A program made the translations under genes and the position numbers. Source: an uncultured Leptospirales bacterium (GTDB lineage: Bacteria > Spirochaetota > UBA4802 > UBA5550). From it: a stretch of 64,000 bases of DNA. Positions 12,158 to 17,228 of this stretch are shown in pieces. The stretch lies in contig CAZBFP010000015.1 of assembly GCA_964491265.1 (NCBI GenBank), forward strand, positions 16,604 through 80,603, read 5' to 3'. The notes beneath the pieces are model-generated. The model was not told where the DNA came from and did not search any database. It saw only the letters and a list, made by a program, of their open reading frames with translations. How positions within the stretch are numbered: position 1 is the stretch's first letter; each line of letters starts with the position of its first letter.

Positions 12158-12613
12158 TTAATCCTTCGTTTATAGAAGTTCTTTAATTTGAAGTTAAATC
12201 ACTTATTTTGAATTTATTGATAAAACCGTTAAGTTGTTCTGCAGACATGTTCAGGTCATCCGCGTCATTGAAGATTGCTCTATCCTTTTATGCACATATA
12301 TTTTATATTACTCAGGTGCATCTTGCTTTAATTATACATGTATATACTACTAATATTATTTAAATAGTATAGTTTAAATAAAGAAAGTTACCATTTATTA
12401 CTAATTTTTACTATACTATTTACTGCAAATTATGGTGAAGACGGTTTAATATCCACTTTTTTAATCGTAAAAATATTTTATAACAACAGTTACATTAAGA
12501 ATGCTTCATCTTTTAACTGTATTTAATTATCCTAATTTTAATATTATTTTCCAGGATCACTATAATATATTGAAGGTTATTTTAAAGTTATTTTAAAAAA
12601 ATTTAAAAATAAA

Positions 12614-12736
12614 ACAGTAATTATTCCTAAAGATATTTTTTAGATCAAAAATGATGTTTCCCATATCCCAGCCGCCTACGGCGACGGGGATATTAGAGCA
12701 TTTTATTTCAAATACAAGTTCAGGAATTAACATTGA
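12614..12736 (+). mobile_element. Family A MITE-like element
   Basis: ACAGTAATTATTCCT...AGGAATTAACATTGA; central hairpin ATATCCC-GCC-TAC-GGC-GGGATAT; flanks AAATAAA/TAATAAA. Confidence 0.8.
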
Positions 12737-12820
12737 TAATAAAAGTAAGTTTTTAAATTGACAAAAATCTCTTTTATAAAAGTGTTACTATAATTCAAAA
12801 AATAAAGGATGTGATTTTTT

Positions 12821-13066
12821 ATGACGAGCCCATTAGAAGTCGAAGTTAATGGTGACATCGAAAAAGCCTTCAAGAATCTTAAGAAAAAAATGGCCTTTGA
12901 GGGTATCTTTAAAGAGCTGAAAAGACGAAGATACTACGAAAAACCGAGCGAAGAGAAGAAGCGGAAGAAAGAGGAAGCTGAAAGGCGCAGACTTAAGAAG
13001 ATAAGACGGATGCAGGTCCAGAATACTAAAGGCAAAAAGATGACACGTGCCGGCGCTAAGGACTAA
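12821..13066 (+). CDS. rpsU: 30S ribosomal protein S21
   Basis: IEKAFKNLKKK...ELKRRRYYEKPSE. Confidence 0.95.
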   Translation: MTSPLEVEVNGDIEKAFKNLKKKMAFEGIFKELKRRRYYEKPSEEKKRKKEEAERRRLKKIRRMQVQNTKGKKMTRAGAKD

Positions 13067-13086
13067 AAGGGTTTAGCAATTTTTAC

Positions 13087-13120
13087 AAAAAAGGCTGTTC
13101 AATAATGAACAGCCTTTTTT
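13087..13120 (+). terminator. Intrinsic terminator after rpsU
   Basis: AAAAAAGGCTGTTCA-ATAA-TGAACAGCCTTTTTT. Confidence 0.9.
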
Positions 13121-13137
13121 AATTATTTACTGAAATA

Positions 13138-13402
13138 TCAGAGTTAATCCCTTAATTTCTATTTGGAATAAAATGCACTAATATCGGGGCTGTCCAAAAA
13201 GTAATTTTCCTGTCATACCGGCTGAAGCGAAGCGGAATGCCGGTATCTCTTAGGCTTGATTTAATCAGGAGATTCCGGTATTTGCAATAATTGAAGTTGC
13301 AAAACCGGAATGACAATTCCTTGCAAATCCGACTTTTGAGACAGTCTCGATATTGAAAACAGCATAATTATATCATAAGATATCTTTACAAATAATTACC
13401 AC
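13138..13402 (-). mobile_element. Family A element (reverse) carrying a nested family B element
   Basis: Arms 13138-13185 and 13349-13402 match the reverse complement of the family A arms; exact 7-bp flanks TGAAATA/TGAAATA. Confidence 0.8.
13186..13348 (+). repeat. Family B 163-bp element (IS-like ends enclosing a REP-like hairpin dimer), copy 1
   Basis: GGGGCTGTCCAAAAAGT...ACTTTTGAGACAGTCTC enclosing GTCATACCGGC..GCCGGTATC and GATTCCGG..CCGGAATGAC. Confidence 0.85.
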
Positions 13403-13442
13403 TGAAATATTATTAACTCTGCAATATTCAAGGAGGGCTGCT

Positions 13443-14750
13443 ATGTTGAATCGAGGCGGCGATCTTTTCCCTGTAAACAATAATGCAATAACTCCACTTG
13501 CCGAAAGATGCAGACCTTTTTCACTTGATGACTATATAGGGCAGGAACACCTGACCGGTGAAGGGAAACTGATCCGGACCCTGGTAAAAAGCGGGAAAGC
13601 CTTTTCCATGATACTCTGGGGTGATCCTGGTACAGGGAAAACCACACTGGCAAAGATTATAGCGGAAAGCTGTTCTATGGAATATTATTATCTAAGCGCT
13701 ATCTCAGCCGGGGTTGCGGATGTAAGAAAAGTTATTGGAGAAGGGGAGAAAAACAGGAGAGGAGGACTCCAGACCCTTCTTTTTCTGGATGAAATTCATC
13801 GTTTTAATAAGGCGCAGCAGGATGCAGTACTTGGTGCTGTTGAGTCAGGCGATATTGTTTTAATCGGCGCCACAACAGAAAACCCCTCATTCAGTGTCAT
13901 TTCCCCCCTCCTTTCCCGTGCCCGTGTATTAAAGCTTAACAGGCTCAGTGATCAGGCTCTTAAAAAAATTCTGGATAATGCAATAGATAATGACTCTATC
14001 CTTAAAGAGAGAGATCTGAAATTTGAAGAAGGAGTAAAGGAAACTCTCACTCTCCTTGGGAACGGGGATGCAAGAAGAATGCTTAATGTGCTTGAAGTAT
14101 CATGCTTTATTTCCGGGAGCGGCCCGGTTACAGCAGATGCAGTTGCAGAAGCCTTTGAAAATACAATGATTTATTATGACAGGAAAGGTGACAGGCATTA
14201 CGATACAATCTCCGCATTCATTAAGTCAATGAGAGGCTCTGACCCTGATGCAGCTGTATACTACCTTTCCAAAATGATTCTTGCAGGTGAGGATCCGGAA
14301 TTTATTGCAAGAAGAATGGTAATTTTCGCTTCTGAGGATATTGGTAATGCTGTTCCCAATGCCCTTTCACTTGCAGTGACCACCTTTACTGCAGTAAAGA
14401 ATATAGGTATGCCTGAATCGGAAATAATTCTCTCCCAGTGCGCCATATTTCTCGCCTCATCCCCCAAAAGCAATGCATCATATAAAGCGATTAAAGAAGC
14501 AAAAGCTGTTGCTCTATCTGATAACAGGGAAATACCTATGCATCTGCGCAATGCGCCAACCGGCCTGATGAAAAATTCCGGTTACGGTAAAGGGTATAAA
14601 TATCCCCACGATTATGAAGGTTCATTTGTTGAAGAGAATTATCTGCCTCATGACCTTAGCGGAAAGGTTTTTTACAGGCCCACAGATCATGGAGGGGAGA
14701 AAGCTTTGAAGGAGAGGCTGGAAAAATTATGGCCTTTAAAGTATAAATGA
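13443..14750 (+). CDS. rarA: Replication-associated recombination protein A (AAA+ ATPase)
   Basis: PLAERCRP, GDPGTGKTT, DEIHRFNKAQQD, GATTENP, SAFIKSMRGSD, ASEDIG, HLRNAPT. Confidence 0.95.
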   Translation: MLNRGGDLFPVNNNAITPLAERCRPFSLDDYIGQEHLTGEGKLIRTLVKSGKAFSMILWGDPGTGKTTLAKIIAESCSMEYYYLSAISAGVADVRKVIGEGEKNRRGGLQTLLFLDEIHRFNKAQQDAVLGAVESGDIVLIGATTENPSFSVISPLLSRARVLKLNRLSDQALKKILDNAIDNDSILKERDLKFEEGVKETLTLLGNGDARRMLNVLEVSCFISGSGPVTADAVAEAFENTMIYYDRKGDRHYDTISAFIKSMRGSDPDAAVYYLSKMILAGEDPEFIARRMVIFASEDIGNAVPNALSLAVTTFTAVKNIGMPESEIILSQCAIFLASSPKSNASYKAIKEAKAVALSDNREIPMHLRNAPTGLMKNSGYGKGYKYPHDYEGSFVEENYLPHDLSGKVFYRPTDHGGEKALKERLEKLWPLKYK

Positions 14751-14756
14751 CTGAAA

Positions 14757-15293
14757 TTACCGTGATACAAATTTTCTGTAATTAATTATCTTATCCATGA
14801 GCCTTTTTGCAGTTCTTTTATCTGATCCCTCAAGGTGAAGGAATATTATTTCCGATTCCTCCAGGTAGGCTGATATTTTTTCATTGTCCCAGTGAGCAGG
14901 GGGCGGATCAAGATTGGTTATTCTGTCAGACATTTTTACAATAGCGATTTCCGGTGTCATCTTCCCTATTCTCAGTAAAGAGTCCTGCATTCTCAGGCTT
15001 TTTTCTATGGATTTATTTTTTGTAAGAGCCAGCACCCCTTTTGCTGTATCTTCTCCAAATTCAGAAAGAATATCATTATATAATATTGCAGTATCTTCAA
15101 GAGTGTCGTGAAGAAGGGCGCAGTTTATCAGCAGTTCATGGTACAGGTCTGTCCTTTCTTCAGTCGCAGAAACTGCCTCGCAGCAGACCCTGGCGCAGTG
15201 AACAATATAGGGGATTCCGCTCCCCGGTATGCTCTGACCCCTGTGAGCCTTAGCTGCAAAAATTATTGCTTTTGAGTAAATATCCTGAAGCAT
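14757..15293 (-). CDS. Standalone RelA/SpoT-type HD hydrolase (small alarmone hydrolase/Mesh1-like)
   Basis: AHRGQ, PYIVH, LLHDTLEDT, ALTK, KMSDRITNL. Confidence 0.85.
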   Translation of the reverse strand: MLQDIYSKAIIFAAKAHRGQSIPGSGIPYIVHCARVCCEAVSATEERTDLYHELLINCALLHDTLEDTAILYNDILSEFGEDTAKGVLALTKNKSIEKSLRMQDSLLRIGKMTPEIAIVKMSDRITNLDPPPAHWDNEKISAYLEESEIIFLHLEGSDKRTAKRLMDKIINYRKFVSR

Positions 15294-15324
15294 TTCCCTG
15301 TTCCGTTTTATTATTAACCTGTAG

Positions 15325-15447
15325 TCAGTAATTATTCCTGAAGATGTATTTTAGTGAAATATTGCTGTTTCCAATTGCACCGCCGCCTTCGGCAGCGGTG
15401 CAATTAGAGCATTTTTCTTAAAATAAAAGTTAAGAAATTAACACTAA
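15325..15447 (+). mobile_element. Family A MITE-like element
   Basis: TCAGTAATTATTCCTG...AAGAAATTAACACTAA; hairpin AATTGCACCGC-GCC-TTC-GGC-GCGGTGCAATT; flanks CCTGTAG/CCTGAAG. Confidence 0.85.
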
Positions 15448-15564
15448 CCTGAAGTATAGAAGATTATCACTCTTTTTGCAATAACTTTCAGTTTCCTGAC
15501 GAAAAAAACTTGATTCCCCTGTTGGTGCTTAATAATTGGATATATTCTATTAAGAGGAGTTTAT

Positions 15565-15840
15565 ATGAAAGAATTATCAGGGAGACAGAGAAGGGAACTC
15601 AAATCTCTTGCTCATCACCTTAATCCTGTTGTTCAGATAGGTCAGAAGGGTTTAAGTGAAAGTGTAATCAAGGCTTTTGAAAAAACGATCGATGACCATG
15701 AATTGATAAAGGTGAGATTTGTAGATTTTAAGGAAGATAAAAAGCAGCTTTCCCTTGATTTGAGCAGGAAAACAGGTGCCGCACTTGTTGATATAATCGG
15801 TAATGTATCTATATTTTACCGGGAAAAAGCTGAAGATTAG
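15565..15840 (+). CDS. yhbY: CRM-domain RNA-binding protein YhbY
   Basis: LKSLAHHLNPVVQIGQKGL, HELIKV, IG...YR. Confidence 0.93.
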   Translation: MKELSGRQRRELKSLAHHLNPVVQIGQKGLSESVIKAFEKTIDDHELIKVRFVDFKEDKKQLSLDLSRKTGAALVDIIGNVSIFYREKAED

Positions 15841-15860
15841 AATTAAAGGAATAATGATTT

Positions 15861-16122
15861 TTAATGTTAATTCCTGAAAATATATTTTAGTATAGAAATG
15901 GACAATTCCTTATGGGGCTGTCCAAAAAGTAATTTCATTGTCATGCCGGCTGTAGCGAAGCGGAATGCCGGTATCTCTAAGGCCTGATTATATCAGGAGA
16001 TTCCGGTATTTGCACAAATTGAATTTGCAAAACAGGAATGACAAATTCTCTCAAATCTGACTTTTGAGGAAGCTCCATAATAGAACACTTCCAGCAATAA
16101 TAAGTTTAGTAATAAATAGTGA
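15861..16122 (+). mobile_element. Degenerate family A element (forward) carrying a nested family B element
   Basis: TTAATGTTAATTCCTGAAAATATATTTTAG left arm, AAGTTTAGTAATAAATAGTGA right end; flanks ATGATTT/ATGATCT. Confidence 0.65.
15914..16076 (+). repeat. Family B 163-bp element, copy 2
   Basis: Colinear with, and the same length as, 13186-13348. Confidence 0.85.
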
Positions 16123-16214
16123 ATGATCTTTGCTGTTGGTTTTATTTTAACCATTTAATTGACAAAAAAACTTAATGGCGGGAAGCTTGCAGATATAATT
16201 CGATGGAGGGGAAT

Positions 16215-17228
16215 ATGAAAAAGTATAAAGTTGTGATTGTTGGCGCCCTTGGTGCTGTTGGAAAGGAATTCCGTAAGATTCTGCTTGAGAGAGAGTTCCC
16301 TATAGATAAAATAAAATTTGTAGATCTTGCAGATGTGGGGAGTGTTGTGGATTTTGGTGATATGCAGGTAACTGTTGAAGCTCCATCTGATGATACATAT
16401 AATGGCTATGACCTGGCGCTTTTTTCAGCCGGGGCTGGTGTGAGTCTTAAGGAGGCGGAAAAAGCAGTAAAAGCCGGATGTGTTGTTGTTGATAACAGCT
16501 CGGCCTGGCGAATGGATCCATCTGTCCCCCTTGTTGTTCCTGAAGTCAATCCTCAGGATGTGGAGTGGCATAAAGGTATTATTGCAAATCCCAACTGCTC
16601 AACAATACAGATGCTTCTCCCTTTAAAGCTTATACATGATGCTGCTAAAATAAAAAGAGTTGTAGTGAGCACATACCAGGCTGTTTCCGGTACTGGTGTT
16701 AATGCAATACAGGAGTGCATCAAGCAGTCACTTGAAGTTTCACAGGGTAAAAATACTTCAGATGTTTCAGTATATCCCCATCAGATAGCTTTTAACGCTC
16801 TACCCCATATTGATGATTTTCTTGATAATGGCTATACAAAAGAAGAGATGAAAATGCTCAATGAAACCAGAAAAATTATCGGGGACAATTCAATAAGACT
16901 TACCGCCACTGCCGTGCGGGTCCCTGTAATTTATGGTCATTCAGAATCAATAAATATTGAAACGGAAAAAAAGCTGACCCCTGCAGATGTAAGAGAACTG
17001 CTCACGGGGAAACCGGGAATAACTGTTCTTGATGACCCTCAAAAAAATATTTACCCCATGGCCCTTGATGCCGCAGGGAAGGATGATGTTTTTGTGGGGA
17101 GAATAAGGGAGGATGAGTCTATTGATAATGGTATCAATATGTGGGTCGTTTCTGATAATATTAGAAAGGGTGCTGCTCTTAATACAATACAAATAGGTGA
17201 GCTCCTTATTAAAAAAGGACTTCTTTAA
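16215..17228 (+). CDS. asd: Aspartate-semialdehyde dehydrogenase
   Basis: GALGAVG, DNSSAWRM, PEVN, NPNCST, YQAVSG, GHSE, DNIRKGAA. Confidence 0.97.
   Translation: MKKYKVVIVGALGAVGKEFRKILLEREFPIDKIKFVDLADVGSVVDFGDMQVTVEAPSDDTYNGYDLALFSAGAGVSLKEAEKAVKAGCVVVDNSSAWRMDPSVPLVVPEVNPQDVEWHKGIIANPNCSTIQMLLPLKLIHDAAKIKRVVVSTYQAVSGTGVNAIQECIKQSLEVSQGKNTSDVSVYPHQIAFNALPHIDDFLDNGYTKEEMKMLNETRKIIGDNSIRLTATAVRVPVIYGHSESINIETEKKLTPADVRELLTGKPGITVLDDPQKNIYPMALDAAGKDDVFVGRIREDESIDNGINMWVVSDNIRKGAALNTIQIGELLIKKGLL

Follow-up and report, generated by a model that had tools for sequence, protein, structure and literature searches.

The 64,000-nucleotide stretch analysed here (contig CAZBFP010000015.1 of assembly GCA_964491265.1, positions 16,604 to 80,603; hereafter the window) carries two composite repeats, composite 1 at 13139-13401 and composite 2 at 15862-16121, in which the arms of a palindromic element, named A, enclose a second element, named B, and the hairpin that normally forms the apex of A is missing. 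Both families are dispersed throughout the genome to which the window belongs (G000; 3.81 Mb in 59 contigs, 98% complete; numbers with the prefix C denote its contigs). Very probably, B is a miniature inverted-repeat transposable element (MITE) of the IS1182 family that moves by stem-loop-replacing transposition, with the apical hairpin of A as its favoured target. Two layers of non-autonomous transposons would then be present, the MITE A of about 121 bp and the MITE B of 163 bp. It is proposed that a trans-acting transposase recognises hairpins or cruciforms in DNA, that the ends of B are joined at the foot of the stem, and that the hairpin is lost with no target duplication; as the target is symmetric, either orientation would be possible. 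The apical hairpin of A, available in about 180 copies, would be the commonest good target in the genome, so most B copies would be nested in A, and the other copies would have overwritten other hairpins, for example terminators. According to one proposal of the sequence-only reading of the two composites, B is a parasite of a MITE, with the hairpin of A as the target that it replaces, and this is supported genome-wide by B copies of 99% identity set in arms of about 78% identity, in both orientations, 0-2 nt from the stem foot and with no target-site duplication (TSD) of their own.

A is a long imperfect palindrome with a consensus of 121 bp, consisting of a 53-nt left arm, the 22-nt tip CCCGCCGCCTTCGGCGGCGGGG, and a 46-nt right arm. 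Its terminal repeats start with CAGTAATTATTCC and finish with AACACTG, and its apex is a GC hairpin with a 10-bp stem and a 4-nt loop. A BLAST search of the whole genome gave 160 full-length copies, and a search with nhmmer profiles of the arms, which yielded 532 non-overlapping arm matches at E < 1, gave 213 elements with correctly paired arms. The 9-mers flanking A agree at 7.45 of 9 positions, compared with 3.97 in shuffled pairs, and a perfect 9-bp TSD was found for 38 of the 115 testable elements, against 0.5% expected; lengths of 5-8, 10, and 11 bp gave no signal in the same flank test. Because of these flank-match statistics, the 7 bp originally assigned to the TSD of A must be corrected to 9 bp, and A is a genuine MITE, with terminal inverted repeats, a TSD of fixed length, many copies, and no open reading frame (ORF). 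The duplication is also kept by the composites, being perfect in 6 of 18 and matching at 7-8 of 9 positions in most of the others. The autonomous parent of A was not found among the paired arms, as the long gaps between them (2218 and 863 bp) contain host genes or other inserts and no transposase.

What sits between the arms is, in most cases, the hairpin. In 176 of the 213 pairs, the gap is shorter than 60 bp, with a tip of 13-37 bp or none, and the modal tip of 21 bp, found in 106 copies, is the GC hairpin, which has been lost from three A copies. A further 26 pairs have a gap of 160-182 bp, which is B, and the last 11 have gaps of other lengths, which are of three kinds: B with additional modules, an element named E, and three non-cassette gaps. 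The catalogue of other cassettes held between A arms, for which the sequence-only reading had called, therefore contains, besides the GC tip and B, module-bearing B and element E. In the whole genome, the GC hairpin motif occurs 188 times, 137 times inside paired A, 24 times beside an unpaired arm, and 27 times elsewhere. According to a reading of the listed flanks, many of these 27 hairpins centre other palindromic repeats. It is also worth mentioning the A copy at C2:185550-185641, which has no GC tip between its flanking ATAT repeats (...CAATAT directly followed by TAAAGC...) and looks like the product of palindrome deletion by slippage.

B is short (163 bp) and non-coding, and it is present at 58 loci of at least 100 bp. 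Its consensus starts with GGGGCTGTCCAAAAAGT and finishes with ACTTTTGAGACAGCCCC; the interior is composed of two inverted hairpins built on one frame (TGTCAT.CCGG...CCGG.ATCTC and GAGAT.CCGG...CCGG.ATGACA), which differ in their tips and are separated by a central palindrome, and the DNA fold of the consensus has an energy of -36.8 kcal/mol. In the profile search, A arms were found on both sides of B at 26 of the 58 loci, on one side at 8, and on neither side at 24, whilst a looser local alignment of the arms gave 26, 11, and 21 loci, respectively, and some arm-less copies visibly lie in more diverged arm subfamilies. By the profiles, B touches A-type arms at the apex at 34 of 58 loci, so that most copies lie inside A and not at random sites outside it. 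GC-tipped A elements span 20,719 bp, that is 0.54% of the genome, and random insertion would place only about 0.3 of 58 B copies in GC-tipped A at all, and far fewer at one position. Since 34 loci adjoin A arms though GC-tipped A covers so small a part of the genome, the nesting is not a matter of chance.

The identity of B copies differs strongly from that of the arms around them. For 28 of the 58 B loci, there is a neighbour at least 97% identical, and a cluster of 21 copies linked at this threshold (>=97%) is found in forward, reverse, A2-type, and A4-type arms and at one arm-less site. In the 13 carriers of this young cluster that belong to subfamily A1, B is 99.0% identical on average (97.5-100%), whereas the arms are 78.5% identical (65-89%), compared with a background of 75.8% among GC-tipped A copies; pairs of the same and of opposite orientation do not differ in identity. 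When all 325 pairs of the 26 two-armed composites are considered, the arms are at most 90% identical, with no pair at 95% or more, and B reaches 100%. Because B is 99.0% identical in arms that are 78.5% identical, it must have entered old, diverged A copies independently, one by one, and B is much younger than its carriers. In addition, the alignment of carriers shows that the arm bases adjoining B keep copy-specific variants.

These values are difficult to reconcile with the simplest alternative, in which A and B together are a longer variant of MITE A, moved as a unit by the A transposase, and B is not independently mobile. Such a unit would be in line with the 9-bp TSD of A kept by the composites, and with a related strain (X9, described below) that is without the whole composite at both window loci, the A-only intermediate being unproven. 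However, it does not explain why B is 99.0% identical in arms so much more diverged, or why no composite pair has arms of at least 95% identity, and B is present in several arm subfamilies, in both orientations, and at the 24 loci without A arms in the profile test, and one solo B replaces a terminator hairpin; movement as a unit is therefore highly improbable. It might also be considered that B spreads from a B-bearing to a GC-tipped A copy by homologous gene conversion instead of transposition. The arms offer about 50 bp of some 80% homology per side, and a weak positive correlation of arm and B similarity was found (Spearman 0.20), but the apparent tracts stop at the B termini within 0-2 nt, where the adjoining arm bases are copy-specific. 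Moreover, some of the arm subfamilies with B have little in common except ATATC/GATAT, and B is also present at non-A sites. Conversion as the route of spread is accordingly very hard to credit.

The joints of B are located precisely. Of the composites, 25 have readable ends, and in these both ends of B lie within 0-2 nt of the foot of the 10-bp GC stem. B abuts ...ATAT(C)(C) on one side and (G)(G)ATAT... on the other, each of which retains 0-2 bp of the stem, and this small scatter points to separate events. No TSD was detected for B, as, at every k from 2 to 9 and in each of the three groups, direct matches between the flanks of the testable copies (44 of 58) were at the level of shuffled controls. 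A target model of the IS200/IS605 type, with insertion 3' of ATATC, was also considered and rejected, since the flanks of solo B copies share no such motif. Relative to A, B has the same orientation in 10 and the opposite in 16 of the composites with both arms, the same in 5 and the opposite in 3 of those with one arm, and thus 15 and 19, respectively, in total. Both orientations occur because the insertions were independent and the target symmetric.

An exchangeable, invertible cassette had also been suggested. In such a model, B would be turned around or exchanged between the A arms, either through a site-specific recombinase or because the arms recombine with one another. Both orientations at the same junction would indeed result from such a process, and the composite at C11:26953-27114 has arms of two subfamilies, A3 on the left and typical A1 on the right, which suggests recombination between two composites via B. 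However, when public contigs from four sequencing runs were placed on the region, no strand-changing joint was seen at either window locus, with the reservation that contigs drop rare variants and a rare inversion could escape them, and no recombinase is linked to the elements as far as their local surroundings were read, no wider recombinase search having been made. The arms adjoining B keep copy-specific variants, B also exists outside A, and a symmetric target accounts for both orientations without inversion. An invertible or exchangeable cassette is thus exceedingly unlikely, and independent insertion of B in place of the A hairpin remains the preferred explanation.

If B replaces hairpins, then sites without B should be found with a hairpin in related genomes. 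This is the case for the solo B at C6:51105-51266, which lies between ...ATAAAA and TTTTA...; the corresponding site in G001, one of the four congeners compared, reads ATAAAA-GCCCGGAATAAAAACTCCGGGC-TTTTA and holds a 22-bp terminator-like stem-loop. At this locus B replaced a terminator-like hairpin, and the comparison is a clean orthologous hairpin-to-B replacement. For the solo B at C4:47151-47311, an inverted repeat directly after the stop codon is present in all four congeners, and G000 seems to keep its outer few pairs.

The same comparison was made for the two composites of the window. These, together with both neighbouring A copies, are absent at the syntenic loci of the four congeners, and the congener intergenic regions at both composites are too diverged to place the joints. 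Among the public sequencing runs, X9, a compost metagenome of 2024, contains a related, non-identical strain, with many single-base differences over window positions 12750-16450. One X9 contig, with long sides and a depth of 46, connects 13126 with 13400 and represents an allele without composite 1, and another (depth 10.5, side 209) connects 15847 with 16122, four other letters lying in between, and represents a minor allele without composite 2. Further X9 contigs anchored in the unique flanks (depth 42-49) enter the arms of composite 2 and cease matching at or near the borders of B (15913 and 16095). Loose ends after 15907 read a GC tip, which fits an A-only allele but is no proof of one, because paralogous A3 copies give the same ends. 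A joint from 15902 to 16096 has a shorter side of 23 letters only, which is no proof of an A-only allele. In another run, X8, stretches without contig cover were not interpreted; depth over the repeats sums paralogues and other organisms, so it was not used.

The family to which B belongs was indicated by its ends. The 21-nt B end, searched across one genome per prokaryote species, was found in 51 loci outside G000 (L numbers designate loci both there and within G000), mostly in metagenome-assembled genomes of the Ignavibacteria type. None of the 51 holds a full-length B (>=140 bp); they are mostly short elements in which the ends of B surround other hairpin-rich interiors. In one Ignavibacteriales genome, the 21-nt end is found exactly at the ends of elements of 2007/2008 bp, L057 (331-2337) and L043 (5452-7459). 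Against the NCBIfam model for IS1182 family transposases, NF033551 (cut-off 270), the 581-aa ORF of L057 reaches 398.9 bits, and it contains the Pfam domains DUF772 and DDE_Tnp_1_6. Like many B copies, these insertion sequences (IS) have the same first 23 bases and the matching inverted repeat at the end; they differ in the interior, which is a transposase gene in place of the two unrelated hairpins of B, and in being located in another genome. Because its terminal repeats are common with an IS that encodes an IS1182-family transposase, B can be assigned, as judged from its sequence, to this family as a MITE.

In one of the outside genomes, a MITE with the terminal repeat of B is centred in a different palindromic MITE (outer ends TGTGTGAATTAGATTG...), and this in both orientations (L031 and L039 in one, L047, L064, and L069 in the other; L073 and L075 also belong to the set). 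Nesting at the apex of a palindrome is therefore not peculiar to family A. The 21-nt B end is also seen in bins labelled Treponema, Candidatus Wunengus, Brocadiaceae, and Bacteroidales (L044, L056, L058, and L070), which could reflect either transfer between phyla or mis-binned Ignavibacteria contigs. In L070, two B ends alone are present, fused into a small hairpin with a run of T behind it. Within G000 itself, the IS1182 family is matched only at C21:47367-47615, by a fragment that contains two stops. It forms part of a degenerate N-terminal IS1182-family fragment at C21:47367-47800 (L080), and some 20 bp separate the presumed left end of the latter (GGGGCTGTGGG...) from half a GC hairpin and one A arm; this is possibly a relic of an autonomous IS that struck an A apex.

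The interior of B resembles the doublets of repetitive extragenic palindromes (REPs) called REPINs, and movement of such a doublet by a Y1 (HUH) transposase similar to the REP-associated tyrosine transposases (RAYTs) would follow a single-strand mechanism that also leaves no TSD. B does consist of two inverted copies of one hairpin frame, the inner hairpins occur alone in other genera, and ten matches to PF01797 (Y1_Tnp), of about 196 aa, were found, for which the best NCBIfam model is REP-associated tyrosine transposase, at 55-59 bits and below the cut-off of 80. However, no B match was found at E up to 0.1 in 8 Y1 loci of the 10 matches, the only A match near the Y1 genes is a copy about 0.5 kb downstream in L016, and in L013, the one locus read, the Y1 gene is flanked by a different motif, GGGTCAGAGCC. 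Furthermore, B has the outer repeats of a DDE-type IS from the IS1182 family, and loss of the target hairpin is, in the published record, a mark of IS1272/TnSha1 and not of RAYTs. Mobilisation of B by a RAYT-like protein is, on balance, very unlikely. As for the Y1 genes themselves, the matches include C1:52222-52524, C4:111382-111690, and C2:86600-86902 plus seven more; two ORFs that were read have 195 and 196 aa, and six copies are 80-94% identical to each other, so that the RAYT-like family is unusually multi-copy. In L013, the GGGTCAGAGCC motifs flank the gene in an inverted arrangement.

Several results weigh against hairpin replacement by an IS1182-family MITE, or limit it. The existence of A-only alleles, which would show the A hairpin before its replacement, was proven at neither window locus, either in the four congeners or in the contigs of the four runs. 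Among six solo B loci compared with congeners, there was one clean replacement, one partial one, and four uninformative sites (C18, C20, C5:138180, and C1:261049). The inverted complementarity expected to remain in the flanks of solo B copies is weak, at 4.92 of 12 positions compared with 4.12, a value reached by 24 of 500 shuffles. The high identity of B copies could partly reflect gene conversion or selection instead of youth. The second debatable issue is the transposase. An intact gene of the IS1182 family was not found in G000, although at 98% completeness in 59 contigs its absence is unproven, and a full-length IS1182-type gene in the congener G001 (contig C278) has ends unlike those of B. 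The transposase source for B copies of 99-100% identity may be unassembled, lost, or foreign. IS copies often remain unassembled in such genomes, and an autonomous partner in the same genome, though usual for MITEs, is not strictly required of them.

Replacement of a hairpin by a transposon has been described before. A comparison of two Staphylococcus aureus genomes by Wan et al. (2017; PMC5678879) revealed three newly acquired IS1272 copies, each in the place of an inverted repeat of 22-30 bp and without a TSD, the target repeats having arms of 9-12 bp and a spacer of 4-6 bp. In the model proposed there, attack at the 3' feet of both stem-loops of a cruciform is followed by loss of the stem-loops, and attack at the 5' feet or in the loop would duplicate the hairpin or the loop. 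It is by analogy with this model that catalysis by an IS1182-type transposase, and the chemistry at the cruciform foot, are inferred for B. According to Furi et al. (2016; PMC4923244), the insertions of TnSha1 and IS1272 are always in hairpins, among them several terminators; part of the hairpin is deleted with no duplication, there is little sequence preference, some targets are used repeatedly, and both orientations occur. In both papers, the observation of palindromic targets for some IS1182 members is attributed to Siguier et al. (2015; via PMC5678879 and PMC4923244). The staphylococcal elements IS1272/TnSha1 (IS1182 family) and B are therefore alike in the hairpin target, the deletion of all or part of the hairpin, the lack of a TSD, the two orientations, and the repeated hits on suitable hairpins, including terminators, and the target of B, a 24-bp GC hairpin (10-bp arms, 4-nt loop) used in 26 to 34 events, is comparable to the approximately 22-30 bp of IS1272/TnSha1. 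Unlike these, which are an IS and a composite transposon, B is a derivative of 163 bp with no coding sequence, its host is an Ignavibacteria genome and not a staphylococcus, its favoured target is the apex of another MITE, and no transposase source was seen in the assembly. The link between the transposases of L057 and IS1272 consists only of membership of the same NCBIfam family.

Other systems show partial similarities. The MITEs partnered with ISMac2 in Methanosarcina acetivorans (160 and 169 bp) resemble B in size, in non-autonomy, and in having a partner of the IS1182 family, but their direct repeats are of 4 and 0 bp, and the relevant passages of that source contain neither hairpin targeting nor nesting (PMC3852290). 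With REPINs and RAYTs, B shares an interior that is an inverted hairpin doublet and a genome with RAYT-like genes; it differs in its DDE-type terminal repeats, and no link of a RAYT-like gene to B was found in the 8 Y1 loci. IS1397, ISKpn1, and others target the palindromes of REPs and bacterial interspersed mosaic elements (BIMEs), inserting into the loop with a TSD and keeping the palindrome. B is similar to IS1397/ISKpn1 in inserting into repeated extragenic palindromes, whereas B removes the hairpin.

As far as titles and the openings of abstracts in the literature searched go, no IS1182-type MITE that replaces the apical hairpin of another MITE is described. The sequence-only reading had seen here a hierarchical non-autonomous system and the best candidate for an undescribed one. 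Two nested non-autonomous layers are present as it supposed, but "undescribed" is too strong, because the IS1272/TnSha1 mechanism is published (PMC5678879, PMC4923244) and B carries IS1182-family terminal repeats. Within the literature searched, several features may be new: that the element is non-autonomous, that one MITE nests in another with a third level inside B, how many independent events there were, and the phylum in which they took place.

In the same literature, stem-loop-replacing transposition is documented only for IS1272/TnSha1 in staphylococci, with a handful of events. The genome studied here adds 26 or more independent events in which a single defined hairpin was replaced, each mapped precisely, and the replacement of a terminator, in a distant phylum and by a non-autonomous element. 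This supports the view that hairpin replacement belongs to the IS1182 family at large, and the composites form a natural data set on the positions of joints relative to the stem foot. The replacement of the terminator suggests that B-type elements can overwrite terminators irreversibly. A MITE that lives almost entirely inside another one also matters for repeat annotation and for the assembly of such genomes. A wider and more tentative idea, which we regard as possible but rather doubtful, is that hairpin replacement is a general and ancient property of the IS1182 family, of MITEs and full-length IS alike, and that it has built a multi-level hierarchy in Ignavibacteria, in which the apex of A would be a renewable landing pad diverting insertions from terminators and the inner tips of B would in turn be overwritten by smaller modules. 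If this were true, such palindromes would be Russian dolls, and hairpins would be rewritten genome-wide in an irreversible, structure-guided manner.

Two further kinds of cassette were found between A arms. Extra small modules are present inside the tips of the inner hairpins of B in C28:4348-4697, C13:73823-74140, and C5:55816-56139, and a module replaces the centre of B in C8:27850-28076. The modules within nested B copies are GC-rich hairpins of about 35-60 bp and add a third nesting level. At C33:29978-30286, C9:1345-1654, C2:197853-198051, and C27:43145-43345, the insertion within the GC hairpin of A is element E (174 bp in C33; ends ATGTCATTAAGTTAAG), and in two of these copies (C33:29978 and C9:1345) a duplication of about 15 bp extends from the stem foot to the loop. 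E looks like a second hairpin-targeting element, one that duplicates the target rather than deleting it. A reading of the flanks showed that most of the 29 E ends found genome-wide directly follow a GC-rich stem-loop plus CA, and 7 of the 29 adjoin half of an A-type GC hairpin in a scripted count.

In the window itself, the description of both composites given by the sequence-only reading was confirmed in its main elements. Composite 1 consists of reverse A arms around B, with AATATC before B and GATATT after it. Its left TSD, CTGAAATAT at 13130-13138, is repeated as the right one, CTGAAATAT at 13402-13410, with all nine bases identical (9/9). The right A arm, on the minus strand, occupies 13139-13185 (nhmmer profile RA- positions 1-47, E 1e-8; inverted-repeat match to the A copy at 12689-12738), and the left A arm, also on the minus strand, occupies 13349-13401 (LA- positions 3-53, E 4e-5). 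Between them, the first B copy lies on the plus strand at 13186-13348 (163 bp; sequence, repeat scan, BLAST, and the fold of the B consensus), and by a reading of the sequence its parts are the terminal repeats at 13186-13202 and 13332-13348 and the inner hairpins at 13211-13249 and 13269-13315, with the central palindrome between the hairpins.

Composite 2 has forward A arms around B, with CTTAT before and ATAAT after it. Its TSDs are AATGATTTT at 15853-15861 on the left and AATGATCTT at 16122-16130 on the right, which match at 8 of 9 positions. The arms belong to a diverged A subfamily, named A3. The left one, at 15862-15913 on the plus strand, is the only one detected by the profile based on A1 (LA+ positions 7-51, E 1e-3), and was also identified by BLAST to other A3 copies; the right one, at 16077-16121 on the plus strand, is missed by that profile and was placed by BLAST of the composite to A3 copies. 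The second B copy, again 163 bp on the plus strand, occupies 15914-16076 (sequence, repeat scan, and BLAST). The BLAST of the whole composite 2 revealed that A3 copies with and without B exist elsewhere in the genome, the matches including C10 130107-130334 (86.9% over 229 nt) and the arm-only matches C10 65311-65267 and 65237-65195. The two B copies of the window are direct repeats of the same length, 88% identical over 155 nt (sequence reading and repeat scan), and the apical GC hairpin of A is missing from both composites.

Two A copies with an intact GC tip lie next to the composites. The reference copy, at 12615-12735 on the plus strand, has its hairpin at about 12667-12689, and the second, at 15316-15446 on the plus strand, at about 15378-15400; in both, the flanking 9-mers match at 8 of 9 positions. 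In an Rfam scan of 12400-16400 (E up to 1), all matches fell short of their gathering scores and were grouped at 12966-13211, near the rpsU terminator hairpin; none corresponds to family A or B. The terminator after the S21-like gene, at window positions 13095-13128 (AAAAAAGGCTGTTCA...TGAACAGCCTTTTTT), has a stem that resembles the terminal repeat of B (GGGGCTGTCCA), and stems like this one are also present in congeners and beside C17:46547.

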